From the IMG/VR virus record IMGVR_UViG_3300017971_000207, positions 64,001 through 128,000 of that record: a stretch of 64,000 nucleotides of DNA; one strand, 5' to 3'. Position numbers and translations under genes: made by a program. Below the pieces are notes generated by a model. It did no database searches and was not told the DNA's origin. It was given only the letters and a program-made list of their open reading frames with translations. Shown piece by piece: positions 533-39,797 of this stretch. The first letter of the stretch is position 1. Each line of letters begins with the position of its first letter. This DNA comes from a virus.

Positions 533-643
533 TGCTCACCGTCTCCTTAACACCGGGCCTCGGCCCGCTACCACCGTCCAATAGATACTTGCGACTATGC
601 CGCACAAACGTCCATACCGTGGCCGCCGCCAGCCACACTTTTC

Positions 644-1456
644 CTACGGATCAACCAAAGAGGCGCCCAGAGTTCCCAGGGAGCGCCACCCCTCAGTAAC
701 CTCCGCAGAGAACGCCGCCCACTGCTCCTTGCCCCGTATCGTGCCGTCGCGGTCGTTGTACGCCTGAGCCACCACAGCAACCATCTCCGCGGTGTACAGC
801 CGGTAGCGTGTTCGGGAGGCTCGAAGCGGTGTCGACGGAAGCGCGCCCCGCTTCTCCATCTGCTCCACGGTCAGCACCGTTCTGTTGATCGCCTTAGCCA
901 GCACCCCCACCCGGAAAAGCGCTACATCCTCCTCCGTCCCGTCCTCAAAACGAACCCGACGGACAAAGTGCTTAGGCTTCTCCATCTGATAGACACGCCC
1001 CGCCGCATCGAGCTGTAGAATACCGTTCTTGATCAAGCGCTCACGTATGACCTCCAGCTCGTGGTCGGTGTACAGCCGGTCGCCGCGGTCACTCCGCAGC
1101 TCCGCCGGATGAATCACGCCCCGCTTCTCCCACAAGCGCACAAGCTGCACAGAGCAGCCAAGCGCCGTAGCAAGCGCCCCAATCGTAAATAGCTTAACCG
1201 GGGGCTGACCCTCACCCATGGGAACGTCAACCGTCTTAAACGGAAGAGGCTTCGTCGGCGTGGCAACCGCCTCTCGCTCCCTCCGTCGAACCTCCGCACG
1301 CTTCTTGCGCGCACGCGCCCGCGAGTCCCGATTAAGCTTCAAAACCCGAGCCTTGTATGCTGGGTCCAGCTCGTACCGACGCCGGCGAGTCTCATTCAGC
1401 TCCTCTCCGTTCTCCGCGTACCAGCTCTTAAAGCTAAAACCTCCTTCACCTGTCAT
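644..1456 (-). CDS. Protein with two MerR-like winged HTH domains
   Basis: LFTIGALATALGCSVQLVRLWEKRGVI...GDRLYT and LFRVGVLAKAINRTVLTVEQMEKRGALP...RYRLYT. Start is ATG 1456 or GTG 1468. Confidence 0.75.
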   Translation of the reverse strand: MTGEGGFSFKSWYAENGEELNETRRRRYELDPAYKARVLKLNRDSRARARKKRAEVRRREREAVATPTKPLPFKTVDVPMGEGQPPVKLFTIGALATALGCSVQLVRLWEKRGVIHPAELRSDRGDRLYTDHELEVIRERLIKNGILQLDAAGRVYQMEKPKHFVRRVRFEDGTEEDVALFRVGVLAKAINRTVLTVEQMEKRGALPSTPLRASRTRYRLYTAEMVAVVAQAYNDRDGTIRGKEQWAAFSAEVTEGWRSLGTLGASLVDP

Positions 1457-1490: not shown

Positions 1491-4400
1491 TCAAGTAACC
1501 CGTAGATAGAAGCGGTCGCGCTGCGCCGCCGCCCGACGGAAGGTTGCCACCAGGTCATCGCGTATATCGACCACGATCGGGTCCTTCTTACCCGCACAGA
1601 TACGCTGAATGCGTCCAGTAGGCTGCTCTACATCCCACATAGGAGTAGCCAATACAAGCGTGTCGAGAGGCGGGATATCAAGGCCCTCTGCAGCCATCTG
1701 AACCGTAGCCAGAACCACCTGTGCCTGCGCAGCCTCCGCCCGCTCATCAGAGGTGCGACCCCCAACAAAATAGCCCACCGTCGGCGCCCGAGAGCCGTTG
1801 GAGCTCTTGGAGCAGGCGTTTAGCAACCCCCGATGAAGTAGCTCCAGGTGATTCAGACGTTCACTCAGCACCAACAGCTTACGCCCGGCAGCGGCCGCTG
1901 CCGCGATCTGTGCGACCACAATCCGATTGCGCGCGCGGTTGGTCGTGAGAAACTGAATAATGAGATGGCGCGGCGCCACACTCGGGTCAAAGCTCGGGGT
2001 AGAGAAGAGCTGGAAGTCTGTCCACACCCGCTTGACCTTCACCTTCAAGAGCTTCTCCTTTGAGGCGTAGAGCACCTTCCCTATGCTGTAACGAAAGACG
2101 TTGTCCGCCCCATCTTTCCGACGAGGTGTGGCTGAGTTGTGAACCAGCACACCATCAGCAACAAAGGACGGGTGACCGCCCATCTCCAGGTCATAGACAA
2201 AGTCCGGCGGCGCGCGATCGTAGTTAACTGACCTCACTACTCCTTCCAGATACGACAGCTCCCCCTCACAGAACCGACGTCTGTGGCCTCTATGTCCTGC
2301 ATCATCCGATAGCTCAGAGTGCCCCGACCAGTAAACCTGAAAGGACCTTCGTCTGCCCATAATCTGCCGACTATCGACAACACCGCCCAAGCTGGGCTCG
2401 TGACCACTTACTCCCCCGACCACTCCCAAAGACCTAAGCAAGCTAAGCAACGAACGAACCAAAGAAGGCGATGTGGTCCTGACGCGATGCCCTACCCTCC
2501 CGCTCTCGCGCTCTGAACGACAACCGTCAGAGTCCAACAGACCTTGTAACAGCTCCCTCCGATAGCACTCCTCCCAGCCCACTACCCAAGCAGCAGGGAT
2601 ACTCTTTTCCCCACAACCTACAGACCCAAAAACATCTCGAAAGATAGCAGCCACCACAGCACTGGAACACCGCACCTCTGCCGAAGCCCCAGGCGTCTCC
2701 CTCTGCCGGGGGTGCCACACCACCCCCGGCAGGCCACGCAGGCGCGTCAGGATCTCCGGCACTCGGCTTAGCTCTACCGCAAAGTTTACGCGGTTACCGC
2801 TCACCCACCCGTCGCCGAGCCAAAAGCCTAGTATGTAGGCCCAACAACGTAGGTCTATGTACGGGTCTGTAGAAACACCTCTCGCCCCTTCTGTGTACAC
2901 CGCCGAGGGCTCTGGCAACCCCTCCCTGCAAGCAAGGTACACCTCCGCCGGAAGATAATGACCACGGCTCCCTTGATTGCGGTAATTCCACCAAGACTTC
3001 GGAGACGCCCCGACATCCCTACGCGCAACACCATCTAAAGAGACAGCCACCTTCACAGATCGAAGACCGTAACGAACAGCCACAGCGGCTACGTCCACAC
3101 GCCCTTGCGAACATCTCGACCCCCAAGCCGCCCCATCATCCATGGGCAAGCGGTCCCCCCTCTCGACCTCCTTGGCTCTGCACACAGATAAAGAAGCCAA
3201 AGGCTTTCGATTCCGATTAACACGCACAAATCCGCCAGGCTCCAGACGAAACAAAGAGTGGTCGTCAGTAACCCGCAGATCGCGCCCAGAAACACGAAGA
3301 CACCTGAGAGGCGCAGAGACTGAATGGCGGATGAGGCTCTTTACAGGCTTCCAACAAAAACCGTACCCCTCCCAGCCTCGCGACTCTACACCATCAAAAC
3401 GGACAACGTCGTAAGTACCCTCTCTCCTCACTGGGAGATACTCAACAGCCTCATCAAACGCTGCCTCAATAGGGCCAACCCACCCCAAACCGAAGACCCC
3501 TCCACGAAGCTCAACAACGGACTGGGGTCCGACGGAGAGACCGATGCGCCACCGCGCGGGGAAGCACGCAGGAACAGGCGCCCAGGTCTCCGCGCCTATG
3601 CGGTGGCAGTTGTGTACCACCACCCCCTCAGCGACAAAGTTGTGCAGGTCCTCCACCGTGAGATCGTAAACAAGCTCAGGCGTCTCAACGTCGGCGGTCT
3701 CCAGCACCCGAGCCAGCGTCAAGCGGTTCTCCATAGGGGCAAGTGAGACAACATCGCAGTGAATCACATAATCGTTGCCAGGCTCCAGCTCCCCAGCGGT
3801 CCTGTCCCCACTTGGCGTAAACACCACGTGATTGGAGGTGCACACCAGCGTCCCGCACTCGTGCCTCACCCACATCATGGAGCTCCGGGGCTTGTGCACC
3901 CACTTTCGCGTCACCGGCTTAACTGCGAAGCGACCACCTACACGATCGTACGCCAGCACATAGACGGGGTCTGGGTCCGCCACCACCTCCTCGATAGGAC
4001 GATAACCACGCGAGGTCAGGATCCGCGCGTAACCTGGCAGCGACTCATCTACCATGAGTGCCCCCGGCCACTGATAGAGCGCTGGAGGATATTCCCGCTG
4101 CGCTAGGGAGTGCACCATCCCAACGGCCAGGTGCTTACCCTCAAAGTCGCACACATCCTGCTGCACACGCCCAACAGCCACCCCTGGGAGAAAGTACCGG
4201 ATGCGCTCCAGCCACTGCTCCACCAGAAACTCCTTGTGTACCACCACGAGGATGGGAACAGCCAGCTGCGAAGCAAGCGATAAGGCGGATACCGTCTTAC
4301 CAAAGCCCGGCGCCGCCCTCAATATACCGCCGGTACAGTAGGGGTCCGACAAAGCCTTAAGAAGTGCCCCTTGCGCCCTTCGCTGCTCTGGCCGCAGCTC

Positions 4401-4673
4401 CCCCTCAAAGCGGATAGGAGATGGTAAGGAGGCCCCCATCGTGTAGGCTAGCTCCACCTTGTGGTAGGGCTTAAGAAAGGAGAGGAAGTACTCACGAGGA
4501 ACACCAATGTGCGTCTTGGTCTCCTCCCACATGCGGATAGTTCCAGGCGCCTCCCCTGGGTGGTCTCCCACCTTCTGGGGCTGAATCGTCAGCTGACGAG
4601 AGATGACCTGCCGCTGTGTGGTGGTCATCCCCGCCAGCCGTATCCAAGCAAGCCTGTCTAGTCGAACATCCAC
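1491..4673 (-). CDS. Superfamily 2 (DExH) helicase with two inteins
   Basis: Walker A APGFGKT. Motif II DE|CH and motif III GL|SAT are each split by an intein. Motif V AEGLDIP and motif VI QPTGRIQR are present. Confidence 0.92.
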   Translation of the reverse strand: MDVRLDRLAWIRLAGMTTTQRQVISRQLTIQPQKVGDHPGEAPGTIRMWEETKTHIGVPREYFLSFLKPYHKVELAYTMGASLPSPIRFEGELRPEQRRAQGALLKALSDPYCTGGILRAAPGFGKTVSALSLASQLAVPILVVVHKEFLVEQWLERIRYFLPGVAVGRVQQDVCDFEGKHLAVGMVHSLAQREYPPALYQWPGALMVDESLPGYARILTSRGYRPIEEVVADPDPVYVLAYDRVGGRFAVKPVTRKWVHKPRSSMMWVRHECGTLVCTSNHVVFTPSGDRTAGELEPGNDYVIHCDVVSLAPMENRLTLARVLETADVETPELVYDLTVEDLHNFVAEGVVVHNCHRIGAETWAPVPACFPARWRIGLSVGPQSVVELRGGVFGLGWVGPIEAAFDEAVEYLPVRREGTYDVVRFDGVESRGWEGYGFCWKPVKSLIRHSVSAPLRCLRVSGRDLRVTDDHSLFRLEPGGFVRVNRNRKPLASLSVCRAKEVERGDRLPMDDGAAWGSRCSQGRVDVAAVAVRYGLRSVKVAVSLDGVARRDVGASPKSWWNYRNQGSRGHYLPAEVYLACREGLPEPSAVYTEGARGVSTDPYIDLRCWAYILGFWLGDGWVSGNRVNFAVELSRVPEILTRLRGLPGVVWHPRQRETPGASAEVRCSSAVVAAIFRDVFGSVGCGEKSIPAAWVVGWEECYRRELLQGLLDSDGCRSERESGRVGHRVRTTSPSLVRSLLSLLRSLGVVGGVSGHEPSLGGVVDSRQIMGRRRSFQVYWSGHSELSDDAGHRGHRRRFCEGELSYLEGVVRSVNYDRAPPDFVYDLEMGGHPSFVADGVLVHNSATPRRKDGADNVFRYSIGKVLYASKEKLLKVKVKRVWTDFQLFSTPSFDPSVAPRHLIIQFLTTNRARNRIVVAQIAAAAAAGRKLLVLSERLNHLELLHRGLLNACSKSSNGSRAPTVGYFVGGRTSDERAEAAQAQVVLATVQMAAEGLDIPPLDTLVLATPMWDVEQPTGRIQRICAGKKDPIVVDIRDDLVATFRRAAAQRDRFYLRVT
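2136..3536 (-). mobile_element. LAGLIDADG intein (467 aa, Ser1) in helicase motif III
   Basis: SVGPQSVV...VTDDH...LGFWLGDG...LQGLLDSDG...VYDLEMGGHPSFVADGVLVHN|S. Confidence 0.92.
3609..4043 (-). mobile_element. Mini-intein (145 aa, Ser1, no endonuclease) in helicase motif II
   Basis: SLPGYARILT...CTSNH (block B)...VYDLTVEDLHNFVAEGVVVHN|C. Confidence 0.92.
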
Positions 4674-4712
4674 GGCTCTAGCTTAGCGCGGAGCCGTTAG
4701 GCAAGTAAGCGA

Positions 4713-7247: not shown

Positions 7248-9856
7248 TAGAACGGTACCCCCTCGTCAGGCGCGTCCCCTGAATCCCCACCGTGCGTCGC
7301 CGAGAAGGGGTCCTCGTCGTCATCCCCCCCACCAGGCTGCACCGGACCACCAACACGTGGGAGCTCAGAGAAGTTGCACCGGTCTATGTCCCAATTGACC
7401 TCAAACGCCTCGCCCTCCCCCTCACGCATCTTGAGGGCCTTCATCAGCATCCGGCGATCCTTCTTCATGTCGTCCGTCTGGATAAGGGCATAGGCTAGAT
7501 CAGCGTTCCACGATGACACGTCGGTCAGCGCTATGCGGTCCGCTCTAAAGGTGCTGGCCGTATTGCTTTTCACCTCGCGGTTGAACTGCATGGTTACCAG
7601 GTTCGGGACACTGGTCCGCTTGCAAATCCTCTTGAGCTCATCAAAAGCGTTGGCGGCTCGCTCCGTCCGGTTCTTGCCCTCCGTCTTTAGCAGGTAAGCC
7701 CCATCCATCACCGCCAGGTCAGGCTCATACTCACGGATGGCGTCCTCGTAGGTGTCGACACGGAAGTCAAAGTCACCCCCAATGACCTTCAAACGCTCCG
7801 AGCGCTCCACCTCCTGGACGTACGCAGCAATCCCCGCCCGAACGCGCTTCTCAGTGAAGGCATCCAGGCGCCCAAGACGCAGCTCCCGGTAGCTAACCTT
7901 GAAGTGAAGCGCAGCAAAGCGCATCGCTATCCGCAGCTTGGATATCTCCGTCGAGCCGAACAGCACCTTGTGCCCGTTCTCCCAAGCGTGGTGAGCTATC
8001 AGCGCTGTGCACCAGGTATTGTGCACGATCACGTCGTTGGCAACAAAGCAGCTCGTGGGCTCAACCGTGAAGTCGTATATCTTCTGCTCCCCAACGTCCT
8101 CAACGGCCTCCACCGTGTCCCAAAACACCTCGCTGTCCCAGAGCCAGCTGTACTCCTCGGTGCAGCCAAACTCGTCGCAGTAGACCCGCAAGGCATCGAG
8201 CGATACTGAGTAGAGGTCTCCATGCTTCTTGAACAGCTGCCGAGGCGAGAAAGTGCCTCGACCGAGCCGCTCGCAGATACGCTGCAGCTTGTCACCGTTA
8301 GGGTTGTGGTAGCCCCGCGCCCCAGCCTCACCCTTGATGCGCAACATCAGCTCCTCAGACACTCGGGGGAAGCCTACATTCGCGTTGCGGGGCCGCTTTA
8401 GAGACTCCTCCAGCCGCCTACCCTTCTCCCCCCACAGCTGGACATGCTTCGCGAAAGCTGGCAGGCACTGCGAGTAAACACGGAGCCGCCAGGCATCAAA
8501 CTTCTTGCCGTCGCAGGTAGCCTGCTTGTACCTAACGCTCGACTGCACACCAAAACGCAGCAACAGATGCTGAATCCCTCGGACGAGCTTCTCAGAGGCT
8601 AGGGTGATGCCTGGAGCCCCACTGTCCACGTACCCATCGCACATCCAGAAGACTGCGAGGAAGCGCGCCAACTGCTCCTGCGGGAGGCGGTAGACCTCCT
8701 CGGGAATAACCTTCTCTTTGCTCAACAAACCAGACACCCGAAGACGCCGCAACAATCTGTCCACCGGATTGCTCTGCGCCCCCGCGGCACGTGTAAAGCG
8801 CCAATCCCGCCCACGCGCGCTGGGCTCCAAAGTAATCCCGAAAGCCTCGGCAGCTGTCCGCCCCAACGCAACGATCGAGGGGTCATCCTTCGTAAAAGTC
8901 GGACTACCGTGAGCCGCTAAAGAACCATCAGCCAGCATAATCGCTAAGACGTCAACCTCATGCGTCTGCATACCGACAGGTTCCAAAGGCTCCGGTATCC
9001 AAGAGGGCAAACCTACTGTGCTCCCTGCTACCAATTCGTCCGCACGTTGCCACCCATCAGGCGTCAAAAAGGGGTGCTCGGGCGTGACTGTAATGCTGCG
9101 ACCTGTCCCCAGCTCAAAGCGCAAACACCGCTTGGTCCCTGTATCGTGCTTTGCCGTAATGCGCTGCACATGGACCCCGTCCTCCTTGCTCCAGCTTAGA
9201 ACGTTGACTAGATCCCCTCGCTTGTAAACGTCCTCAACGGTGTGGGGTGCACCAGTAGCCGGGTCGTGTGTAAGTGTTTGATAATACACGCATTTTCCTG
9301 TGCCGGTCTTCGCAGCAAAAAGGATAAGGTCCTCGGGCCAAAAACCGTAGGTCTCCTCATTGATCGTAGGCCAAGGCGTTAGGATGCCACGCTCCCCCGC
9401 TTTCATCCGATCGTAGTGCTCCATCACCTTCGGCCAAAGCTTGGGGATGCTCTCCGCCCGAGAGTGGGAAACCTGGTGCTCTCGGCGGATACCCCGCAGA
9501 AGGCTCTCCAGCGCGTCTAGAGCTTCGTAGGGCCGTGCGTCGTCAAGATGCTTTGCCGTCTCCAACAGGCTGTTGCGTAGGTCTATCTGCATCTTGCGCG
9601 CCCAGACCTCCTTAACGAAGAACTCCGCGGGCTCATCCACATCCGGCAGCGCTAAGCTCAGCTTAGCCTCTACCACCTGACGCGACGGCGGCGAACCATA
9701 GAGCTTCGCATGATCGTTGATAAGCTTGTAGGCCCCTGGGGCGTGCTCACCCATCAGCAGGTCAGGGCGCATAGCCGCCTCTCTAGCAACCTTGAGCCCC
9801 GCCCCGTCGCCCGCGAGAATCGCAGAGATAAGAGCTAAATCGAGATCGAGAGCCAC
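7247..9856 (-). CDS. dnaB: DnaB-like replicative helicase with an intein in the P-loop
   Basis: AAKTGTGK|T Walker A, STE, DLAVMDG, QFNR, KMREG. Confidence 0.92.
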   Translation of the reverse strand: MALDLDLALISAILAGDGAGLKVAREAAMRPDLLMGEHAPGAYKLINDHAKLYGSPPSRQVVEAKLSLALPDVDEPAEFFVKEVWARKMQIDLRNSLLETAKHLDDARPYEALDALESLLRGIRREHQVSHSRAESIPKLWPKVMEHYDRMKAGERGILTPWPTINEETYGFWPEDLILFAAKTGTGKCVYYQTLTHDPATGAPHTVEDVYKRGDLVNVLSWSKEDGVHVQRITAKHDTGTKRCLRFELGTGRSITVTPEHPFLTPDGWQRADELVAGSTVGLPSWIPEPLEPVGMQTHEVDVLAIMLADGSLAAHGSPTFTKDDPSIVALGRTAAEAFGITLEPSARGRDWRFTRAAGAQSNPVDRLLRRLRVSGLLSKEKVIPEEVYRLPQEQLARFLAVFWMCDGYVDSGAPGITLASEKLVRGIQHLLLRFGVQSSVRYKQATCDGKKFDAWRLRVYSQCLPAFAKHVQLWGEKGRRLEESLKRPRNANVGFPRVSEELMLRIKGEAGARGYHNPNGDKLQRICERLGRGTFSPRQLFKKHGDLYSVSLDALRVYCDEFGCTEEYSWLWDSEVFWDTVEAVEDVGEQKIYDFTVEPTSCFVANDVIVHNTWCTALIAHHAWENGHKVLFGSTEISKLRIAMRFAALHFKVSYRELRLGRLDAFTEKRVRAGIAAYVQEVERSERLKVIGGDFDFRVDTYEDAIREYEPDLAVMDGAYLLKTEGKNRTERAANAFDELKRICKRTSVPNLVTMQFNREVKSNTASTFRADRIALTDVSSWNADLAYALIQTDDMKKDRRMLMKALKMREGEGEAFEVNWDIDRCNFSELPRVGGPVQPGGGDDDEDPFSATHGGDSGDAPDEGVPF
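8018..9292 (-). mobile_element. LAGLIDADG intein (425 aa)
   Basis: CVYYQTL...VTPEHPF...LAIMLADG...LAVFWMCDG...IYDFTVEPTSCFVANDVIVHN|T. Confidence 0.93.
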
Positions 9857-9858
9857 AG

Positions 9859-10470
9859 CTACCTCCTCGCTCCCATGACCAGGTCCTTTAGCGCCCGGTC
9901 GCCGGTGTTACATTGGTTGGGCCCCTCCACAAGCAGCGGGACCATGCGGCCCTTGACAGCCTCCGCGAACGTCCCGAAGTCGGCGTCGATGTCCGCAAAG
10001 GGGATGCGCGTGGTAATGATGGTAGGACGCTTCCAGCCGCCCCGCTGCAACACTAAGCGCTCCAGGTCTCGGGCACCAAGCAAACGGTCCGAAGCGTCGG
10101 CGGGGTCAAGGTCGTCAAGCACCAGCAACGGGACCGCTCGCGCCCGGTCCATCATGGTCTGCTCCTCGTCGAACATCAGGCGCTTCCGAATGCTCTCGCG
10201 GAGGTCCGAGACGGATATCCAGAATACGGGCATCCGGTGGGCCCGCACCTCCTTGGCGATTAACGCGGCAATAGCACTCTTGCCCACCCCAGGAGGACCC
10301 ATTAGCAGCAGCCCCGCACAGGCCGATACCATCTGCGGAGCGCGGCTAAGGTAGCGGGCAACCACCTGCTGCACACTCTCGGGGACCTTTTCCAGCGTAA
10401 CCTCCCACAGCTCTGGTGGAAGCTGCATACGCTCCATGTCCTCGTGATCTATCTCTCGCTTGTCCATCAT
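9859..10470 (-). CDS. DnaC/IstB-like AAA+ helicase loader
   Basis: GPPGVGKS, LLVLDDL and PTIITT motifs; lies between the initiator and dnaB. Confidence 0.88.
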   Translation of the reverse strand: MMDKREIDHEDMERMQLPPELWEVTLEKVPESVQQVVARYLSRAPQMVSACAGLLLMGPPGVGKSAIAALIAKEVRAHRMPVFWISVSDLRESIRKRLMFDEEQTMMDRARAVPLLVLDDLDPADASDRLLGARDLERLVLQRGGWKRPTIITTRIPFADIDADFGTFAEAVKGRMVPLLVEGPNQCNTGDRALKDLVMGARR

Positions 10471-14138: not shown

Positions 14139-16064
14139 CTACCTCCGGCGCAGGAACTGGATAAAGCTGGACGAGACCAGCTGGACGAGGTCGGAGCCTA
14201 TGCGCTCAGCTCGAACTCGCCGCCAAAAGCGCTGCGGCCCAAACATATAGGACAGCTGAGACGGCTCTAGGTCAAAGCGCGTAGGGAAACCGGGCCCCAT
14301 CCGAGACCCGAGGAGAATGCCAGTAACGCCGATCCCCTGAGCCCGTGCCTGCTGCACCTCTTTGCGAACAAAGCGCATTAGCTGAGGAGTGCCGAACGTC
14401 TTCCCGTCACGCCGTCGATGGGTAGGGAACCCATCAGTGACTATGAAGATATGCTTGACCTCGGTTCCACAGCGCAGCTCCTTAACGGCCAGCCGTATAG
14501 CAACGTGGAGCGGGGTACCACCCCCGGCCCCCTTGTCCCCCATCGAGAGCACAGCATCCTTGTGGGAATCATAGCGGGTGATGGTTATCTGGCCAGGCTC
14601 CTGAGAGGAGAAGCCCCAAACCAGACTCTCTACGAAGGGGAAGCGCAGCGCTCGGTTGAGGATGTTGTAGGCAGAGCGGCACTGAATCGTTTTGCTGTGA
14701 CCCATAGAGCTGGAGCGGTCTAGAAGAAGGATGGACCGAAAGCCTTGCCCCCTAGCCTCCGAGCGAAAGCAAGGGACCGGCACACCTGTTACGTGGCGCT
14801 CCAGATAGGCGCCAACGTCCACCCTCGTCCCGCTCTCCTCTAGCGCCGAGGCACGTCGCCCCAGCACGCGGTAAAACTGGGCCCGCAGGCGCCGAATGGT
14901 TCGGCGTTCGTCGGGGTACACGTTCACCGAACCTTCGCGATCGTGGTCAATGAAGGTGACCTTCGCCATGGCGTCCTTCTGTAGCCACGCATCGCGACGA
15001 ACAACCTGCTTCATCTCCTGCAGGACCTGTGCAATCAGGTCCTGCATGCGGTCCTCAGACCGCGCTAGCTCCGCGTCAAACACATCACCGTCACCAACCG
15101 GAGCACACAGAGCTTTAGAGGCCAGAGCCTGCGACCGCGGAGATGTCCGAGACCGGACATAGCTCGACTCGCGCATCAGGCCCTCCAGGGCCTCCGGAGC
15201 GTCGCCGCTGTCTGCTAGAACTCTTGATAGGGCCTGCGCCCTCTCACGGCCAGAGACGGCCTGCGGGGCCTCGGGGTGCCACGGCTGCTGCTCCCCACTT
15301 TCCGCGCTGGCGCTCTCGTCCTCCTTACCGTCTGATGATCCCTCCTCATTGTCCCCGTCTCCCCTCTGCGGACAGGAGGGAGGGGGCTCGCCGCGGGTCT
15401 CACGGATTATCTGATTCACCAGCTGCACGACCAGCCACTTGCTCACCATCAAGGTGGCAGTAAAGTCGCGACCACACACCTTTCGGAACGCCTCCAGTAT
15501 GTATGGCTCGAAGCAGTCTAGGTCCCCAGGCGCCACGCCCTCTGGGTCCCCGCTCAGGCAGGTTACGTAGGAGAGCAGGCCCTCATGGGCCTCGGGCAAT
15601 ATCTCCGCGACAGCCTCACGATCGAGGTCTCTGATGATATCTCTGCTCCCGGCGTATAGCAGTCCCCACAGGGAGAGCACCCGGCGTCGCTCCAGCTGCG
15701 CGATGATATGTCCTAGCAGCTGGCGAACATCCTCCAAGGCAATGGGGACTCCCAGCTTTTCTCCTACCTTCTGCACCTTCTCGGTGTAGGTCTCCACGAA
15801 GAGGCGGGCGGCTTGAGGGTCGCTCTTGAAAAGAATATGCGCTAACTGCAGCTCAACCAGCCGGTAAAAGCTGGAGTGGAAGAAGGGCGCTCTTATCTCG
15901 TGGCCGTCCGTCCCCGGCACGTCGGCGTGGCGCAGCCACAGCTTGCGTTTGGTAATACCCGCAAACATGTCCACGGTCTTGTAGGCCACTGAGCGGGTGG
16001 TCTCATATGCTCGGAGAGCCTCCCGACGCTCTGGAGATAATTCGGCGGCAGCGTCCGGGGTCAT
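14139..16064 (-). CDS. vWA-domain protein (CobT/NorD-like MoxR partner)
   Basis: MIDAS DRSSS, GGTPL, VTDG; acidic linker; directly downstream of the MoxR ATPase. Confidence 0.88.
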   Translation of the reverse strand: MTPDAAAELSPERREALRAYETTRSVAYKTVDMFAGITKRKLWLRHADVPGTDGHEIRAPFFHSSFYRLVELQLAHILFKSDPQAARLFVETYTEKVQKVGEKLGVPIALEDVRQLLGHIIAQLERRRVLSLWGLLYAGSRDIIRDLDREAVAEILPEAHEGLLSYVTCLSGDPEGVAPGDLDCFEPYILEAFRKVCGRDFTATLMVSKWLVVQLVNQIIRETRGEPPPSCPQRGDGDNEEGSSDGKEDESASAESGEQQPWHPEAPQAVSGRERAQALSRVLADSGDAPEALEGLMRESSYVRSRTSPRSQALASKALCAPVGDGDVFDAELARSEDRMQDLIAQVLQEMKQVVRRDAWLQKDAMAKVTFIDHDREGSVNVYPDERRTIRRLRAQFYRVLGRRASALEESGTRVDVGAYLERHVTGVPVPCFRSEARGQGFRSILLLDRSSSMGHSKTIQCRSAYNILNRALRFPFVESLVWGFSSQEPGQITITRYDSHKDAVLSMGDKGAGGGTPLHVAIRLAVKELRCGTEVKHIFIVTDGFPTHRRRDGKTFGTPQLMRFVRKEVQQARAQGIGVTGILLGSRMGPGFPTRFDLEPSQLSYMFGPQRFWRRVRAERIGSDLVQLVSSSFIQFLRRR

Positions 16065-18109
16065 CTCTTCTTCCCGTTGAGGTCTACCTTGAATATCGAG
16101 GTGATGCGCTCCCGGACCGTGGCTTTGTCTGTCCCCTCGAACTTACCGACGACGATGCGCAGCGCGCGGGTTAGGTCCAGAGCTGCAATATCCTCCAGAA
16201 GCTGCACGACATCACGAGGGCTGAGGGCATAGTCCAAGGAAGCCTGGCGAGTCTCGTGCGCGAGCGTCATAACCTGCTTGACCACCTCTTTTCGAACGCC
16301 CCCGTTGAGCACAGCATCCAAGATCTTCTTCTCGCTGGTGGGATTGGGGTAGTCGACCGAGATAACCCTAAAACGAGACTTCAGATCCTCATTGAGCGCG
16401 TACACGCCGCCGTATACCGCCGTGTTCATTGTCCCGGTAACCCACAGCTCCTTACCGGGCTGCAGCTTAAACACCTTCTGCGCCTCGGGCACCTCCACCC
16501 GGCAACGCCAATCTGCTACCGCGTTAAGGATCTTCTGGCTCTGGGGTGAAAGCGAGTTATGCGTACCAAGCCCGTTGGCAAAGTATGTATGAGTCCCCGT
16601 GAGACCTATCTCTCGTAAGGGTGTTGGGGTCCTGTTGACTACCACTCTTTGTACAGTTACCCATCGAGGAACGTCCTCACCGCCCGACGTATTAGGTCTG
16701 GGCTTTTCAGATCCTCTTCCGATAGTCTCAACACTGTATAGCCCATGCTGGTGTAGGCTGCCGTCTCTGCCTCGCGCTGCTCTTTCGGGTGCCAGTAAGC
16801 CCCATCTACCAGCAGTACCTTCTTTCCCCTGGCAATGAAGTCGGGATTGAGGTGCCTCCCATCGGGGGTCGTCAACCATCTGCTGCCGTCGCCGACATAG
16901 TGAACCGGAAGACCTTCTAGGATGCTCATAGCCTTCCGCTCCAGTGCTGTGGGAAGCTCCGCATTCCACCCCGCATGTACAAACTGTATCTTGGCCTCGG
17001 GGTGCGCCTTCAGGTACGCCTTCCGCTTCGCCGACATATTCTGCCTGTGTGCGGGGTCGGACCATATTCTCTGAGCGCGTTCCGAGGCCAAGGCGCGACC
17101 TTTGGGACTCCGCCAAAACGCTGCGGTGGCTTGGCCACCTCGTGCTGCAGCCTCGCGGAACTCGGGGGACCGACAAACTGCCAAACGTTTGGCCCGCCTC
17201 TCCTCGTCGGCCCACTCTTTCTTCATCTGTCGCCTTTTGGTAGCAGCCATCTTTGCCCGCGTGGTTGGGTCCTCGTGCGGGCGCAAATTTCTCAGGAAGG
17301 CTGACATGCCCTCGCGGTACTCTTTGTCCTTCCACCTTTCGCGCATAGCCCTGGAGCGTTTTGCGCGAGCCTCCGGCGTCCTCGCCTTTGCTTGGACGTC
17401 CGGGCGACGTCCCGGATTGTCTCCGTGCGCCATACGTTCGTGAGCTCTTAAGGCCCGCAGGTCCCTCTTCACGCAGCCGCAAGTTTTGCAGGTGTAAGAT
17501 TCGGTCGCCTTCGCGGATGTCTTCGGCATAGGACCAACCTCGTGCGGTCCAAAAAAGGTGGTTACCGCTAGCAGTTATCCTACGCTCACCACAATCTAGT
17601 GTAAAGGAGGTGTTAGCCCATTCATCTCGGACCTCTACCACCGTCTCGATGCCTTGTTGACCAGAGGGTCCGAAGCTCACCACAGCGTCTCCCACCTGGA
17701 CGCGTTCTATAGGCACTTGGAGACCCGAAGGCAGCATTACGTTGGAGGATGGGTGTATGCAATTGATCTCCTCTAGGCAGAGGATACAGCGGCCAACCTC
17801 ATTGGCCACCTCGAAGGCGTTGGTTATGGGCCCTAGAACAAAAGGGGTCGAGCCCCCTCGGATGATGTGCATCCCCAGCAGATGAGAGCGCCGCACATCC
17901 TCTGAGCAGTCAAAGGTGATGATCGGGCTCCGTACCTTGTTAGCGTAGTGCTGGATGGAGAGTGTTTTCCCTACCCCCTTCGGACCACACACAATTGCGG
18001 GTGCCCGAAAGGCTAGCCCATCATACAGAGGGAGCAGGTCCAGGGCGTCGATGTAGGTAACCTGCTTCGGAGCGAAGCTGTCTGCGGGCAAACTTAGAAT
18101 ATCGCTCAT
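16061..18109 (-). CDS. MoxR/CbbQ-type AAA+ ATPase with intein
   Basis: GPKGVGKT, Walker B ILCLEEIN|S, GTMN, LNEDLKSRF, LSPRD. Confidence 0.9.
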   Translation of the reverse strand: MSDILSLPADSFAPKQVTYIDALDLLPLYDGLAFRAPAIVCGPKGVGKTLSIQHYANKVRSPIITFDCSEDVRRSHLLGMHIIRGGSTPFVLGPITNAFEVANEVGRCILCLEEINCIHPSSNVMLPSGLQVPIERVQVGDAVVSFGPSGQQGIETVVEVRDEWANTSFTLDCGERRITASGNHLFWTARGWSYAEDIREGDRILHLQNLRLREEGPAGLKSSRTYGARRQSGTSPGRPSKGEDAGGSRKTLQGYARKVEGQRVPRGHVSLPEKFAPARGPNHAGKDGCYQKATDEERVGRRGEAGQTFGSLSVPRVPRGCSTRWPSHRSVLAESQRSRLGLGTRSENMVRPRTQAEYVGEAEGVPEGAPRGQDTVCTCGVECGASHSTGAEGYEHPRRSSGSLCRRRQQMVDDPRWEAPQSRLHCQGKEGTAGRWGLLAPERAARGRDGSLHQHGLYSVETIGRGSEKPRPNTSGGEDVPRWVTVQRVVVNRTPTPLREIGLTGTHTYFANGLGTHNSLSPQSQKILNAVADWRCRVEVPEAQKVFKLQPGKELWVTGTMNTAVYGGVYALNEDLKSRFRVISVDYPNPTSEKKILDAVLNGGVRKEVVKQVMTLAHETRQASLDYALSPRDVVQLLEDIAALDLTRALRIVVGKFEGTDKATVRERITSIFKVDLNGKKR
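16556..17761 (-). mobile_element. Intein (402 aa) with an out-of-frame nested endonuclease gene
   Basis: CIHPSSNV...ASGNH (block B)...IGLTGTHTYFANGLGTHN|S. The middle has no recognisable in-frame domain. Confidence 0.88.
16657..17529 (-). CDS. Nested putative homing endonuclease: C2H2 finger, NUMOD3-like helices, Vsr/DUF559-like nuclease
   Basis: CKTC-x12-HERMAH; basic repeats such as TPEARAKRSRAMRERWKD; C-terminal PTALE...PDFI...VDGAYWH...MGYTVLRLSEEDL; GAGGT SD upstream of the ATG. Confidence 0.82.
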   Translation of the reverse strand: MPKTSAKATESYTCKTCGCVKRDLRALRAHERMAHGDNPGRRPDVQAKARTPEARAKRSRAMRERWKDKEYREGMSAFLRNLRPHEDPTTRAKMAATKRRQMKKEWADEERRAKRLAVCRSPEFREAAARGGQATAAFWRSPKGRALASERAQRIWSDPAHRQNMSAKRKAYLKAHPEAKIQFVHAGWNAELPTALERKAMSILEGLPVHYVGDGSRWLTTPDGRHLNPDFIARGKKVLLVDGAYWHPKEQREAETAAYTSMGYTVLRLSEEDLKSPDLIRRAVRTFLDG

Positions 18110-20910: not shown

Positions 20911-21257
20911 TCCTAGCCCTGGCAGCCCTGGTGCTAACCGGCTGTCCCCAGTTTAAGCCGTGGGCCCGAACAGCCCTCGAAGCAGCCCGACACGCCTGCG
21001 CTGCCTACGCGGAGCAAACGGGCCTGTCCTTCAAGGACGTGTGCGACACCGAGGAGAAGCTACGTCCGTTTATCGATTCGATCCTAGCAGCTCAAGCAGC
21101 AGCCGCGGCAAAGGGGGCGGCCGGAGCCTGCAAGTGCCCAAAGTGTGAGGAGGCCCCCAAGCCCGCTGCCCCCGCACCGAAGCCGCCTCCCCCCACGCCC
21201 TCCGCAAAGCCGGAGGCCAAACCCATCCCCAAGCCTGAGCCAGCACCAGGAGGCTGA
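20886..21257 (+). CDS. Lipoprotein with a Pro-rich tail
   Basis: Signal peptide with lipobox LTGC. Confidence 0.75.
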   Translation: MRKAATTLILALAALVLTGCPQFKPWARTALEAARHACAAYAEQTGLSFKDVCDTEEKLRPFIDSILAAQAAAAAKGAAGACKCPKCEEAPKPAAPAPKPPPPTPSAKPEAKPIPKPEPAPGG

Positions 21258-21258
21258 G

Positions 21259-24200
21259 ATGACGGAGAAAGGCACAGGCTACATCCCATCGCCAGAGGAC
21301 GAGCGGGACTACCCGCTGATAGGCCCAGGCGAGAACGCCCTCTTCGGGGCGCTGAACACAACGGTCCCCACCGAGCATCTAGCAATGCTACCGTTGATCG
21401 ACTTCATCCGTGATCAAGGCGGCACCAACTCGTGCTTTCCTGCGGGCACTCGCGTGCTCCTGGAAGGCTTTACAGAGCGACCTATCGAACAGATTGCTCC
21501 AGGAAACCGTGTGCGGACGCACACAGGCCGAAGCGGTGCCGTCACAAAGGTGTCTGAGAGACCCTACGAGGGGCTGCTGTATTCGATCAAAGTAGGAGGC
21601 TGGATATACCCCCTAGAGGCTACTCCCGAGCACCCCGTAGCCGTCATCGCCAACGTGTCCGCCAGAGCAAAGCACGGAGACTTCGAGCCTGGTGAGCTAA
21701 CGTGGCGCCGGTTTGACGCGATACGTCCAGGAGATCGTGTAGTCATGCCTGCAGACACCCGAGAGTTCCCCGAGGACTATCGGTCTGCGTGGCACGTGCT
21801 GCGCGTAGCGGACTATCTGGAAGGGGAGTACTGGGAGGAAGATGGCGCTGTTCGAGCGGCCATGGGAAGACGGGGGAGTGAGATACCTGCGGAGCTGGGG
21901 CTCACCCCCGATATCGGCAGGCTTCTCGGGCTGTTCCTAGCAGAGGGCAGCTTTCTCAAACCCAGCGGCACTAAACAGGGTGTGGCGTTCACCTTTGCGC
22001 GGCACGAAGCGCTCCTCCACACCTTCGTCTTGGAGGCCATGAGGACACACTTCGACCTGGAGGGCCAGAAGGAGGAGACGGAGCAGAAGCCCAACGTCAC
22101 AACGTTGCTATTCTACAGCTCAACTGTAGCGCAGCTGTTCTACGCTCTGTGCGGAGAAGGGGCGCTACAGAAGCGCGTGCCCGACGTGTTTTTTGAGACA
22201 GGGCGCGACGTGAAGCTCGCACTCATCCGAGGGTGGTTTCAAGGAGATGGGTCTCAAGACCCCGTTCGTCTCCGCAGAAAGAAGGACGGCACTGTGCGCA
22301 AAGCTGCGGCCGTTCAAGGAGTCACAAGCTCTGAGGAGCTCCACCGTGGGCTATACCGCTTAGCCTCTCTCTGTAACATCAAGCTCAGTACGCAGCAGAG
22401 AAAGGTAGCGGAGCATCAAAACGCTGCCGGCCGCGAGCTGAACCTTTACGGGGACAACATCCTAAAGGTGTTCCCCGATGCAGCACCGCGCCTGGAAGCC
22501 GCTGGGATAAAGCTATCGGGACGGACCCGCTACCGAAAGCACGCCTTGGGATATCTGTGCCGCGTAGAGGAGGTTTCTATGCGTGAGGCCCCCGCAGACA
22601 CTAAGGTCTACAACTTGGAAGTCGAGGGGGATCACTCGTACGTTGCCGAGGGCATCGCCGTCCACAACTGCGTCTGGCAATCCATCCAGCAGCAGCACTA
22701 CATCGCACAGGGGGTACACGGGGTGCAGCAACGTCTACCCCTGAGCGTGATGTTCGGCTACTACCACACGCGCCTTCGCGGGGGCACGCAGAGGTTTGAC
22801 AATGGCTGCTTCCCCAGGCTGGCCTGGCAGGTGGCGGAGAAGATCGGATTCTGTATCGAGGACCTGTGGCCCTTCAAGGAGCCCGAGATAAACCGACCGC
22901 CGAGTCTAGATGCCACCTCCGGGGCCATAGACCAGCGGTGGGTGCACGGCTACTACCACATCCTCGGACGCCCACGAGAGGAGGAGGTCCGACAGGCCCT
23001 CTCAAACAACCACCCTGTGGTATTCGGGACCGTCGTCGACAACGATTTCAAGCGGTACAAGGGCTCTAACCTTAGCACCGAGCCTATGAAGCCTCCGACG
23101 GGCCACTCCGGACGCCATATGATGTGCGCAGTTGCGTACGATCAAGACGGTCTGTGGGTGATCAACTCGTGGGGCTGTTACGACGATAAGACGGAGATTC
23201 TAACCGCCGCTGGGTGGAAGTCTTTTGCTGATGTCGTGGTGGGTGAGCCCGTCGCAACGCTTAATAGCCACGGGGAGCTGGAGTACCAGAATACGACTGA
23301 CGTTCAACGCTACATCTACGACGGAGAGTTGTGGTCTTACCAGTCCCAAGGCGTAGACCTTGTTGTGACGCCAAACCACAACATGCTCATAGGACGCCGT
23401 TGTCGCGAAGGCGGTAAGCGCGTCCCCAAGTGGGAGCGCGTTCCGGCTGATCGCATCAACACCAAACACTTCTTGATGAAGAAAACGGCTGCCTGGTCAG
23501 GCGAAGAGCCTCCTTACATTGAGGTCGGTCCCCACAGGATACCAACGGAGCTTTGGGTCGAGTTCCTCGGCTACTTCTTGTCCGAAGGTCATGCCCGAGA
23601 GAACGTGGTCCAACGGCCGGAGCGTGTGGCGCTTAACGGTACGACAGGTCGCGAGAAGCGGTACAGCGCGTGCAGCGAAACTCAGTACCTGGTGGGTATC
23701 CATCAAACCAAGTCTGAAGGTGTCTTCAAGATGGGCGCCTGTCTACGTCGCATGCCTGCCGCCTTCACCCGCATAACAGGGGGTTGGCAGGCAACATCTA
23801 GCCCACTGTGCGAGCATCTTCTCCCGCTCGGAAAAGCGCATCAGAAGTACATTCCTCCCTACGTCAAAAGGCTCTCTCCTCGGCTTCTACGAGTGTTCCT
23901 GAAGGCCGCTTGTCTCGGCGACGGCTCCCCTGTAGGCCGCAACGGCAGCGTCTACTACACCTCGTCCAAGCGGCTTGCTGACGATATACAGGAGGTTGCA
24001 CTAAAGGCCGGGATGTGTGCAGATATACGCGAGGATGATCGCCGCGGTCGTACTAATGCGCGGGGGACCACTCGCTATGTGAACTACCAGGTGGCAATCA
24101 AACCCGTGAGGGGAGAAACCAAACCCAAAGGAGGCTTCACGCCAACAAAGATCCCCTACAAAGGTTTCGTGCGCTGCGTCACAGTACCGAACGGTCTGGT

Positions 24201-24369
24201 CTATGTTCGACGCAATGGTAAGGCGGTCTGGTCGGGCAACTCCGACTGGGGCTGCCCGGACCCATCAGGGTTCTATCGATCGGGGTTCTTTCATATGTCC
24301 TGGGAATGGGTAAACTGGTCAAGTGCCACTGATTGGTGGGCCGTCCAATACCCAAAGATGTTCGTTTAG
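21259..24369 (+). CDS. Papain-like (C1) cysteine peptidase with two inteins (~269 aa after splicing)
   Basis: IRDQGGTNS|C (oxyanion Q and catalytic C), GRHMMCAVAY (His), INSWG|SDWG..GFF. AGGAGG RBS before ATG 21259. Confidence 0.88.
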   Translation: MTEKGTGYIPSPEDERDYPLIGPGENALFGALNTTVPTEHLAMLPLIDFIRDQGGTNSCFPAGTRVLLEGFTERPIEQIAPGNRVRTHTGRSGAVTKVSERPYEGLLYSIKVGGWIYPLEATPEHPVAVIANVSARAKHGDFEPGELTWRRFDAIRPGDRVVMPADTREFPEDYRSAWHVLRVADYLEGEYWEEDGAVRAAMGRRGSEIPAELGLTPDIGRLLGLFLAEGSFLKPSGTKQGVAFTFARHEALLHTFVLEAMRTHFDLEGQKEETEQKPNVTTLLFYSSTVAQLFYALCGEGALQKRVPDVFFETGRDVKLALIRGWFQGDGSQDPVRLRRKKDGTVRKAAAVQGVTSSEELHRGLYRLASLCNIKLSTQQRKVAEHQNAAGRELNLYGDNILKVFPDAAPRLEAAGIKLSGRTRYRKHALGYLCRVEEVSMREAPADTKVYNLEVEGDHSYVAEGIAVHNCVWQSIQQQHYIAQGVHGVQQRLPLSVMFGYYHTRLRGGTQRFDNGCFPRLAWQVAEKIGFCIEDLWPFKEPEINRPPSLDATSGAIDQRWVHGYYHILGRPREEEVRQALSNNHPVVFGTVVDNDFKRYKGSNLSTEPMKPPTGHSGRHMMCAVAYDQDGLWVINSWGCYDDKTEILTAAGWKSFADVVVGEPVATLNSHGELEYQNTTDVQRYIYDGELWSYQSQGVDLVVTPNHNMLIGRRCREGGKRVPKWERVPADRINTKHFLMKKTAAWSGEEPPYIEVGPHRIPTELWVEFLGYFLSEGHARENVVQRPERVALNGTTGREKRYSACSETQYLVGIHQTKSEGVFKMGACLRRMPAAFTRITGGWQATSSPLCEHLLPLGKAHQKYIPPYVKRLSPRLLRVFLKAACLGDGSPVGRNGSVYYTSSKRLADDIQEVALKAGMCADIREDDRRGRTNARGTTRYVNYQVAIKPVRGETKPKGGFTPTKIPYKGFVRCVTVPNGLVYVRRNGKAVWSGNSDWGCPDPSGFYRSGFFHMSWEWVNWSSATDWWAVQYPKMFV
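21433..22668 (+). mobile_element. LAGLIDADG intein (412 aa) immediately before the catalytic Cys
   Basis: CFPAGT...ATPEHP...LGLFLAEG...IRGWFQGDG...VYNLEVEGDHSYVAEGIAVHN|C. Confidence 0.93.
23176..24240 (+). mobile_element. LAGLIDADG intein (355 aa, ends GN)
   Basis: CYDDKTEIL...VTPNH...LGYFLSEG...CLGDG...CVTVPNGLVYVRRNGKAVWSGN|S. Confidence 0.92.
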
Positions 24370-28217: not shown

Positions 28218-31200
28218 CTATCTTATCGGACAGCTTCCGCTAGCGCACGCCTCCTCAATCTCCATCTCACCGCCGTTGACCAGCGGGTGGTCGTGGTCGA
28301 TGTTGGAGGCTAGACGCTCAAAGGTCTCGCGGTCTATCGCCTCGTAGGGAGGCTGGGCGTAGCCATGAGCCTTGGGCAAGCAGGTGGTGCTCTTAAGCCG
28401 CGGCACAAACTCCCCGAGAAGAGCGGCAAGCTCCTCCTGCTCCGTATCGGCGTCAAAGGTGATAGTGGCACTGACGGCATTATCTGCCCAGTGCTCCTGT
28501 ACGGCCGCCTGCCGTTCAAACTGCTGGCGCAGCGTCTGCGTCTGCGCAGTCACGCGCCCCGCGGGCGTCGACTCTGCGAAGCTGAACACGATCGTGTTCC
28601 CTGTCTGGTCGTACACATCAAGCTCGTGCGGAACGCCAGCCTCCATAAGGGCGCCGGCTAGGTTGTCCGCAATGTCCAAGCGAACACGGCGGATGTAGTG
28701 GCGCGCGAAGGGGGCGTGGATGCCTGGCGAGCTGCGGCTTAGCAACGATATGGTGCCGCTAGGCTTAACGGTGGTAACGGTCTTGGGGATAGCTGTGCCT
28801 AGCTCAATGGCGTAGCGCGTAGCCTCCCTGCGACATGCTCCGTACCACGCATCGAGCTGTGCTGGCGTCCAGTCGAAGTCGCAGATACCCCCCAGCCCTA
28901 CTCCTAGCCTCATGTTCTGCTGCTGCACCGCGTTCGAGATGGGGTCCGTCAGCTTAGACAGTCGATTGCGAAAGCAGTAGCGCGTGACAAGGCGAAACAC
29001 CTCGTCAGCGTCAGTCGTATCGTGGAACCGTGAGGGGAACACCTCGGACAGGTTGCACGCCTCACGGTTGTACAGCGGCAGCTCGCCACAGTTGCCCGTC
29101 GCTACGCCGTCTGCAATGAAGGTCTCGTGCGTCGGCTGCTTGAGGCAGAACACCGGCTCGTGTCCGATAGGCTCGATGCTCACGATCTCCGTGGTGAACC
29201 GCTCCGCATAGGGTCCCCTCTTCCACGAGCTGCGCCAGCTTAGATAGCGATCCTCCATATCCTCTCGGAGGAATCCGAGCTGCTCATAGAAACGGACCGC
29301 GTTGGCCTTTGAGACAACAAGGTCGTACTGCGTCTTGCACCAGTAGTCAGCAAGGTCCCCCTTACCATCAGGCAGACGGCGATAGCCTGCGTCTCGCCGC
29401 TTGTAGACGGACGACACGATGCCGAAGTTTAGGAGCAGCGTTTGAACATCACGGAGAAGAGCTGGGTTGCTCTGCGACAGACGGACGGAGAAGGTCTGCT
29501 TTTCGGCTGTCCAGTTTATCTGACCGTCTGTTGCGAAGAGGCCGCGGAGGTAGCCGCGGACGCACTTTTTGGTCCCGCGCCACACCACCTCTGGCACAGA
29601 GCCCTTCTCACGATAGCCTACCTCAGCCAGGGCACGGCTTAGCAGCGAGCTGCAGATGTCCTCGTAGCGATCATACACTTGACAACCGAAGCGCTTCAGG
29701 TGCCCGTTACGCGGCGCTACGGAGGCCGCTACCTCGTGGCACCACGCTAGATATTGCCCGGACATCTTGCGCTTGGCGTCCCAGAAGAATAGATGAGCGC
29801 GCTTGCCGTCCTCGCTCCAACAGCCGTCACCTTCGAGCCACCCAATAACATGCCCGAGAGCCTCGCTGCCGTCCGCCCCCCACAAACCCTCGCCGGATTG
29901 AAGTAGCAAGGTATCTCCAGGAGACAGGTCCTTAAGCTCCACAAAACCGTCGGGGGTCGGGAAGCGGTGATACGCCGTAGCCTTGATCTCGTTACCGTGC
30001 CGGGTCCGCATCCGGTAGACCTTCTCGGAGGCGCTTGTCTGGAAAGCCGCCTCCGCCTCGCGATGCACCGCTCCAGGCGAGACGTTCGTACGGTCCGTGC
30101 CGACACGAGCGTCGGTGGTGACCTGGAAAGCTTTGGCGTCCTTGAGATCTCGGATGGGTATTAAGCCCCATTGCGTGACGACACGGGTGTCGCCGGTGAG
30201 GCAGGGGTTGATCCCAACGATACCGGGGTCCGTCTCACGACATAGAGGGAGGTTGAACACACCAGGCTCGCCACCAGGCTCCGCAACGATGTCCGAAACG
30301 AGCTGGCGCCAGTCAAACCCCTCCAGCTCCTCCCTGCTTTGGAAGGCCAACGAGTTGTTGCTGGTGTGCCGATGCAAGGTTACCAGGCTCAGGTCCTTCT
30401 TCGCATTCCGGAAGGCTTGGTCGGTCGGGCTCCCCAAGGTCATCAAGGCGGAGTTGTGGACGAGCAAGCCGTTGCAGACAAACTCCTCAGCACCAGCTAC
30501 CTCGATATCGTAGGTGTCCGCGGTCTCGTCCGTCTCGGTCACGTCCTGCACACAGATGGGCACGAGACCCTGAGCTTCTCCGCCCAGCTCTTCGTAAAGC
30601 GGGAAGACCATCTGTTTGCTGGTTGAATCCCACCGACCTTTCCAGAAGGTGGTGCTGTGTTCTGCGCGCACCATCTCGGAGGGGTAGCCGTAGTCACACT
30701 GAGACACCGCGCTTACACGGACGCGCTTGGTCGCGTGGGGCTGCACTAGCTCCAGAAAGCGGGCCGTCGCGGTCCGTCCCACCAGATTGAGGTGGTACAT
30801 AGGCTGCCAAGACCCTCTAGCAGAGCGATTAAGCTTCAACCTCGTCGGTATTCCCAGGCTCGCGTAGACCGCCTGCACCTGCTCCAGGAAGGAGGGGTAC
30901 ACCGAGGCGCAGAGAACCACGGGGCGATTGCGTGCTGCACCGTCCGCATCTAGGAGGCCCGCCAGGTAGGAGGCTCGAACATGGGGGAGCCCCTCCAAGA
31001 TGAACGACGGCACGTTAAGAGGCTGACGGGGTTTCTTCAGATTATCGTCCAGGTACCAGGCTAGCTGCTTGGACTGTGCTCGTATCCTTAGACAGTCGTC
31101 GAGGGCTCGTGGGGGGCGCTCGTTGAGCCGGACCCCGTAGCGCGTCAATTGCTCACGGCATCTGTTTGCTATTGCGTTGTGATAGCCGTCGTTAGCAACT

Positions 31201-33401: not shown

Positions 33402-33465
33402 AGCTTCTCCACGCGCACGCTTGCCCGCCAAGAGGCCCGCGCCTCCTGCGGGTCTTTTTGGTTAA

Positions 33466-39671: not shown

Positions 39672-39797
39672 GTGCGTTGCTCCTATCGCTCGCATAAGAT
39701 GCTCGACCCTACCACATAAGGAAAAAGTTGTCAACAGTGTGAAAAACTGCCCCAGCTTTGTCAGATTGGGAGGGTGTCTGTTCGTCCTGCAGACACC

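Follow-up and report, generated by a model that had tools for sequence, protein, structure and literature searches.

In the genome of an uncultivated phage we found an intein whose endonuclease slot very probably harbours an independent nuclease gene in a second reading frame. The stretch analysed here (the window) comprises 64,000 nucleotides, i.e. bases 64001-128000 of the 145,433-base IMG/VR virus record IMGVR_UViG_3300017971_000207, and coordinates without further prefix refer to it. On the minus strand of the window, a gene for a CobS/MoxR-like AAA+ ATPase carries within its Walker-B motif a contiguous class 1 intein that would splice in cis, and a gene for a Vsr-like (EDxHD) nuclease of the free-standing type is overprinted in the +1 frame of the intein's endonuclease slot. 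A sequence-only reading of the window had proposed such a dual-coding element, and the comparative evidence given below supports this proposal. We compared five lineages of the locus (the window; L002/L003/L008; L005/L006; L004; and L120). The features of the window locus are as follows:

16061..18109 (-): host ATPase precursor gene, CobS/MoxR-like AAA+, 682 aa including the intein, one open frame
17762..18109 (-): N-extein of 116 aa with the Walker-B motif ...CLEEIN at its end (from the sequence and the alignment with intein-less alleles)
16556..17761 (-): intein, 402 aa, class 1, with Cys1, block B SGNH, terminal HN and Ser+1
17477..17761 (-): N-terminal HINT part, intein residues 1-95, blocks A and B, beta-strands, conserved in 4 loci
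16676..17470 (-): host-frame linker, intein residues 98-362, ~265 aa, Gly/Arg/Ser/Glu-rich, stop-free
16556..16675 (-): C-terminal HINT part, intein residues 363-402, blocks F and G, WVTV...GLGTHN, pLDDT (predicted local distance difference test) 70-95
16061..16555 (-): C-extein, 164 aa plus stop, starting with SLSPQSQK
16657..17529 (-): nested gene, 290 aa, homing-endonuclease candidate, +1 frame (580 mod 3 = 1)
17537..17541 (-): Shine-Dalgarno (SD)-like GAGGT, followed after 7 nt by the nested ATG
17422..17496 (-): C2H2 finger, nested residues 12-36, C-x2-C-x12-H-x4-H, with C14, C17, H30 and H35 invariant
16660..16950 (-): nuclease domain, alpha/beta, nested residues 194-290, Vsr/DUF559 (EDxHD)

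The host frame retains the N- and C-terminal splicing blocks that the sequence-only reading had described as normal. The intein interrupts the Walker-B motif (LEEIN|C...THN|S), with the codon of Cys1 (C1) at 17761-17759, the terminal HN at 16561-16556 and Ser+1 at 16555-16553. C1, the block-B His, the terminal HN and the +1 nucleophile were invariant in four loci and were also present in L120, and W367-V370 and G397-N402 were invariant in the C-terminal HINT part. Pfam Intein_splicing matched the window sequence weakly (13.2 bits). An AlphaFold2 model of the intein, built on four homologues, showed the HINT halves at a pLDDT of about 90 and the linker at about 32 and without secondary structure. 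A Foldseek search with this model returned 35 matches at E<=1e-3, every one of them HINT (inteins, the hedgehog autoprocessing domain and bacterial intein-like (BIL) domains). The best intein match was the Mtu RecA splicing domain (template modelling score 0.6, root-mean-square deviation (rmsd) 1.5, E ~1e-5), and the NpuDnaB and gp41-1 inteins were also among the structural matches of the folded part. The model places the HINT fold in the two intein halves. The middle of the intein had been described as Arg/Gly/Ser-rich, stop-free and without a recognisable domain, and the composition of the linker (G 41, R 35 and S 25 among 265 residues) as well as its disordered model agree with this description.

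The nested gene brings its own start and stop. Its ATG lies just past block B and behind the GAGGT, and its TAA lies within the conserved host WVTV motif, just ahead of block F; frame, length, signals and coordinates are those already proposed from the sequence. In L004 a GAGGG stands at equal distance from the nuclease ATG. L002 and L005 have a GTG or ATG start 21 codons upstream (L002:3824 and L005:3824), directly past a stop and behind a weak AGAAG, and their nuclease ORF (open reading frame) therefore also overlaps host block B. A small GGACC/GGTCC stem at 17531-17550 had been thought to flank the SD. The letters are present, but the stem was absent from the minimum free energy structure, was no more stable than in shuffled sequences (z -0.21) and was not conserved in L004, and we rejected it as chance. 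We also rejected a candidate promoter for the nested gene, a sigma-70-like site at 17605-17577 (-) with a 9/12 match, as the count of 2 such sites in the region was within the shuffle expectation of 0.9 +/- 1.0.

The predicted 290-aa product carries a C2H2 finger and a Vsr-like nuclease fold, two of the assignments that the sequence-only reading had made, and it has the EDxHD composite motif. The finger was recovered by profile search against solved zinc fingers in the PDB with an E-value of 1.4e-7. About six repeats of the W.DP..R..MS type were helical in the structure model of the nuclease (overall pLDDT 70). These had been taken for NUMOD3-like basic helices; the repeats are visible, but a scan of the four closest lineages (all but L120) gave no match to Pfam NUMOD3 at E<=0.1, and it was matched only in the remote in-frame relative P0144. 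For the nuclease domain, the top VIA-align match was 3r3p_A, the catalytic domain of I-Bth0305I (Z 6.3, rmsd 2.6, 83/97 residues), followed by the DUF559 protein 3hrl (Z 5.8). A profile search found 3r3p at E 2.4e-4, and hhalign against nested or in-frame relatives passing the Pfam DUF559 threshold gave 96% with E 2.6e-9. Pfam DUF559 was matched by all 4 members scanned (best E 1.1e-4). Foldseek of the whole nuclease model against the PDB gave nothing at E<=1e-3, with 3r3p at rank 49. The residues of the catalytic set (E197, D230, D242, H247 and E255) were invariant, and the D-to-H spacing of 17 equals that of D196-H213 in I-Bth0305I; the final position is Glu where the EDxHD set has Asp.

The arrangement was conserved across considerable divergence. 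Nuclease homologues at 51-58% identity were nested in the matching position on contigs from different samples, and an exhaustive profile search added L120 with a more distant homologue (P0005). In all five lineages the host frame was uninterrupted and the nuclease lay in the +1 frame, at the matching place of the same ATPase; identities between the nucleases were 46-58%, and each had its own start and its own stop. An in-frame fusion in close homologues, which would have spoken against dual coding, was therefore not what these lineages showed. Longer in-frame fusions of the close nuclease were also missing among proteins of 509-2000 aa, which is weak evidence, and more distant in-frame fusions with inteins did turn up in the exhaustive profile search.

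Two signatures of selection distinguished the two frames, as the sequence-only reading had anticipated. Stops in the host frame of the overlap were counted after the synonymous codons of the nuclease gene had been permuted, or drawn anew according to the codon usage of each contig, so that the nuclease protein stayed unchanged. No stop was observed, while 8-12 were expected on average, and P(0) was <= 1.5e-4 at every one of four loci. A stop-free host frame arose in <=3/20,000 trials at any single locus, and at three of the four it never arose. In its third frame, the overlap contained 8-13 stops. As 0 stops stand against 8-12 expected, the intein frame is actively kept open. Differences per site between loci were 0.50-0.63 at nuclease codon position 3 and 0.30-0.44 at positions 1 and 2. 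With respect to the host frame, the values were as follows:

Exteins and HINT parts: host position 1, 0.33-0.42; host position 3, 0.53-0.72 (most variable); amino-acid identity 47-62%
Overlap: host position 1, 0.61 (most variable); host position 3, 0.33; amino-acid identity 25%

Host position 1 in the overlap is nuclease position 3, and the pattern of variability flips exactly at the overlap. Since substitutions are concentrated at nuclease position 3, the nuclease frame is under purifying selection. The intein frame is constrained within the overlap against stops only, with an amino-acid identity of 25% between loci compared with 47-62% in exteins and HINT parts. Where the ends of the nuclease ORF overlap true HINT sequence, both frames are constrained.

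The distribution of the intein was sporadic. Among 22 related loci obtained from a scan of viral contigs for the C-extein, the intein was missing from 21; these read LEEIN|(A/G)L(T/S)PQ(M)QK, and the DNA of the site is conserved as well (...CTCGAAGAGATCAAC|GCNCTC...; in the L098 type CTCGAAGAGATCAAC|GCCCTCACC). The +1 residue was Ser (Cys in L004) in intein-bearing alleles only and Ala or Gly in empty alleles. In a tree of the exteins, the intein alleles, of which there were only five, were not monophyletic: L005 grouped with the intein-less L098 and L108 at a support of 100/99, and the window grouped with L002. As the intein alleles do not form one clade, at least two gains or losses must have occurred. 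In L004 (L004:1122-2345), intein and nuclease were located 6 nt (two codons) upstream of the site used in the other four lineages. This lineage reads LLLEE|C...THN|CNALTPQ, with Cys+1 in place of the Ile of EEIN, and in the others the sequence is EEIN|C...THN|S(L)(T/S)PQ, where Ser+1 takes the place of Ala/Gly. The site shift suggests either two insertion events or an element that might have moved to a neighbouring position.

From these observations we infer the following working of the element. The ATPase frame would be translated straight through the 402-aa intein, and the HINT halves (about 95 and 40 aa) would assemble around the disordered linker of ~265 aa, which would act as a passive tether. 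Splicing would then join the exteins into an active ATPase (LEEIN-SLSP). Separate initiation in the +1 frame, at the internal SD and ATG, would yield the 290-aa nuclease, and this nuclease would cut intein-less alleles of co-infecting relatives, whose repair would copy intein and nuclease together. Selection would act only against stops in the intein frame because a stop would destroy the ATPase. With regard to its origin, a free-standing gene that invaded a mini-intein would fit both the nuclease's own start and stop and its free-standing relatives.

Several observations weigh against this explanation. The window nuclease reached 17.6 bits for DUF559, which is under the Pfam cut-off of 20.6, and the structural Z of 6.3 is modest given that unrelated rows score 5-6. 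A good SD and ATG are missing in L002 and L005, so the mode of initiation is not uniform. Furthermore, a nuclease gene would be expected to bring 8-12 host-frame stops into an intein that is in fact uninterrupted.

Among the alternatives, the one that survives best is that the nuclease, the intein or both are inactive, that the open frames are leftover and that the locus is inherited vertically only. With only five intein alleles, losses could also account for the sporadic distribution, and activity of the nuclease and of the intein is a prediction. A dead overlapping ORF would, however, soon gain stops, and stop avoidance was kept in every lineage. Purifying selection was strong, and catalytic residues and zinc ligands were invariant across deep divergence. 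An intein that occupies the Walker B of a conserved ATPase would moreover need to be spliced. We therefore consider a relic quite unlikely.

The nuclease might also be made without an internal start, through a programmed +1 frameshift of ribosomes that translate the ATPase frame, which would give a fusion of N-extein, HINT part and nuclease. A run of six T residues, 22-27 nt upstream of the nested ATG and downstream of the last nuclease-frame stop, would agree with this. However, this run falls in codons fixed by host block B, and both the window and L004 have an ATG with an SD at ideal distance. In L002 and L005 the nuclease frame opens elsewhere, immediately behind a stop, and free-standing genes encode the relatives of the nuclease, all of which makes a frameshift very improbable. 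We give similarly little credence to an insert that does not splice and is tolerated as a loop of the ATPase. Such a loop was proposed for the HNH insert of phage ShiLan (PMC11855218), and splicing of the window intein is likewise a prediction. In contrast to ShiLan, canonical splicing residues and a confidently predicted HINT fold are conserved in the window type, Ser or Cys at +1 occurs only together with the intein (Ala/Gly in empty alleles), and the insertion lies within the Walker-B motif. Finally, an assembly or sequencing artefact, in which two compensating indels mask an ordinary in-frame endonuclease, might be considered as the nuclease domain does occur in frame in the wider family (second intein of L055, P0028, P0104 and P0144), but five independently assembled and diverged lineages keep the +1 layout with own start and own stop at 46-58% nuclease identity, in the host frame the overlap encodes a sequence that has no predicted structure and is 25% identical, and identical contigs were obtained from different samples (L002=L003 and L005=L006), so that compensating assembly errors are excluded for all practical purposes.

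A cis-splicing intein with an overprinted free-standing-type nuclease gene thus remains our favoured explanation. We also considered a further-reaching and rather doubtful idea, namely that the overprinted state represents a stable mobile end-state of an EDxHD nuclease together with a mini-intein and is no rare accident, and that L004 is this unit caught re-inserting non-allelically. If true, L004 would be a case in which a nuclease of the free-standing type had taken an entire intein along to another site.

The nuclease family is large and mainly phage-borne, with 2932 representatives at E<=1e-3, of which 302 also pass E<=1e-10, and we found its members in four states. In most of 80 loci examined they were encoded as free-standing genes, for example beside capsid genes in L007. 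In a second state, the nuclease was an in-frame intein domain in helicase, QueC-like and B12-binding proteins (P0028, P0104 and P0144 being among the helicase/QueC inteins). Thirdly, it was encoded antisense within the first intein of L055, and the fourth state is the sense +1 arrangement of the window ATPase. L055 (L055:1-3543) is one MuF-like head-protein gene with two inteins in which Vsr/DUF559 nucleases are arranged differently: the nuclease is antisense in the first intein (319-1161 (-)) and fused in frame in the second (DUF559, 55.5 bits). Inteins of MuF-like head proteins at L074:1308-3515, L085:149-2347 and L070:2-1159 carried an independent +1 DUF559 gene with several CxxC zinc ribbons. 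Between L074 and L085, the overlap showed 66/30/28 differences at host positions 1/2/3, and position 3 dominated in the flanks. The intein of these two loci was 11-17% diverged at the nucleotide level compared with 23-30% for the exteins; such a lower divergence of the intein is as expected after recent horizontal transfer, which may have occurred here.

Elsewhere in the same phage, outside the window, the first intein of PolA (family-A DNA polymerase) contained a 184-aa HNH_3 ORF (46.9 bits) in the +1 frame:

L119:3078-3632 = G000:C1:46154-46708 (-): PolA HNH_3 ORF, with GGAG upstream of its ATG

Host-frame stops in this overlap numbered 0 compared with about 8 expected. The PolA intein is thus the second one in this genome that is overprinted, and its nuclease is of a different family. 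The phage is unusually rich in inteins, which we found in the portal, PolA, ResIII helicase, DnaB, class II ribonucleotide reductase (RNR) and UvrD genes and in the gene for a 1093-aa protein. There were one or more per gene, mostly with in-frame LAGLIDADG domains. Intein genes of the window are located at 1494-4682, 7250-9907, 21088-24366, 28221-33461 and 37371-39806, and further ones, outside the window, in L118 and L119. Other open stretches of >=150 aa, antisense or in an alternative frame, in the portal, PolA (second site), DnaB and RNR intein genes gave no Pfam match and were rejected as GC-driven chance frames.

The assignment of the host protein is based on Pfam AAA_5, which was matched by the window precursor and by the intein-less homologue L091 (73.6 bits); the latter also belongs to phrog_249 'porphyrin biosynthesis', the phage CobS-like family. 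Directly downstream of the ATPase gene, and overlapping its stop, the window has a partner gene:

14139..16064 (-): VWA-domain (CobT-like) partner gene, weak VWA_2

The same order of ATPase and VWA genes was found in L002, L005 and L004.

Inteins with an endonuclease in a separate frame or strand are already known from the literature (1998; preprints of 2025-2026), and the window locus is one of them in kind. Judged from its sequence, it displays what characterizes overlapping-ORF inteins, i.e. a separate-frame endonuclease, an open intein frame and frame-dependent selection. Gosselin, Arsenault and Gogarten (bioRxiv 10.1101/2025.01.02.630785) described full actinophage inteins whose endonuclease is a separate-frame or antisense ORF. 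Their same-strand case is endonuclease VII-like (frame 3) and their antisense cases are LAGLIDADG and VSR-like/EDxHD; for the earliest antisense case they refer to Gorbalenya 1998, and they propose an origin by invasion of a free-standing homing endonuclease gene (HEG). The window intein resembles these actinophage inteins in being contiguous and full, with a separate endonuclease ORF between the splicing blocks and a nuclease type, VSR-like/EDxHD, that is also among theirs. Their hosts are DNA polymerase, minor capsid, terminase and thymidylate synthase genes and their VSR-like genes are antisense, whereas the VSR-like gene of the window lies in +1 on the sense strand, also encodes a C2H2 finger and has the CobS/MoxR-like ATPase gene of an uncultivated phage as its host. 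Phillips, DeSimone and Gogarten (bioRxiv 10.64898/2026.09.14.751524) described a cyanobacterial dnaX intein with a same-strand +2 LAGLIDADG ORF. This intein (Gorbalenya 1998; Phillips 2026) shares with the window the same-strand overlap, a linker that is disordered in models, frame-dependent selection and a sporadic distribution, but differs in its LAGLIDADG nuclease, the +2 ORF, its location on a bacterial chromosome and dnaX as the host gene.

Fractured genes, in which a free-standing gene for a Vsr-like endonuclease separates the halves of a split intein, were described by Dassa et al. 2009 (PMC2677866). They share with the window the nuclease family, the phage and metagenomic setting and a HEG with its own expression signals in the endonuclease slot. 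There, however, the host gene is broken into two ORFs whose products must trans-splice; the host frame of the window type had no stop in five lineages, and in none of them was the host gene found in two ORFs as in fractured genes with split inteins. The prototype of EDxHD homing endonucleases, I-Bth0305I (Taylor et al. 2011, PMC3239194; PDB 3R3P), resembles the nested protein in its C-terminal Vsr-like catalytic domain, its acidic/His set and its phage origin, and its N-terminal modular DNA-binding helices may have a counterpart in the helical repeats of the nested protein. It is encoded in a recA group I intron, lacks a C2H2 finger and is about 20-23% identical. Arsenault et al. 2025 (PMC11855218) reported an out-of-frame HNH insert in the methylase of phage ShiLan. 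Here too, the endonuclease ORF is hidden, the insert is open in the host frame and the ORF stops within the last bases of the insert, but ShiLan has no splicing domain, whereas a complete HINT domain flanks the overlap in the window ATPase. New at the window locus are the CobS/MoxR-like ATPase as host protein, the Walker-B insertion site and the C2H2-finger variant of the nuclease. The locus further adds strong comparative statistics, the two-codon site shift in one lineage and the second overprinted intein in the phage.

The locus also has consequences for annotation. In public gene calls at L002:3022-5382, L005:3100-5343 and L004:759-2885, the ATPase was in pieces and the nuclease was cut to 252 aa without the zinc finger. 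Standard gene callers thus miss the nuclease or break the host gene, and because they fail at overprinted inteins, the annotation of intein-rich phages is systematically wrong there. The HINT halves with their 265-aa linker, which is unstructured in the model, may interest protein engineers as a mini-intein tolerant of a large insertion. The locus represents a clean natural case of a single piece of DNA under two regimes of selection, with the protein constrained in one frame and nothing but stop avoidance in the other. As a sense-strand case with a Vsr-like nuclease, it extends the small published set that favours the acquisition of intein endonucleases through the invasion of free-standing genes.

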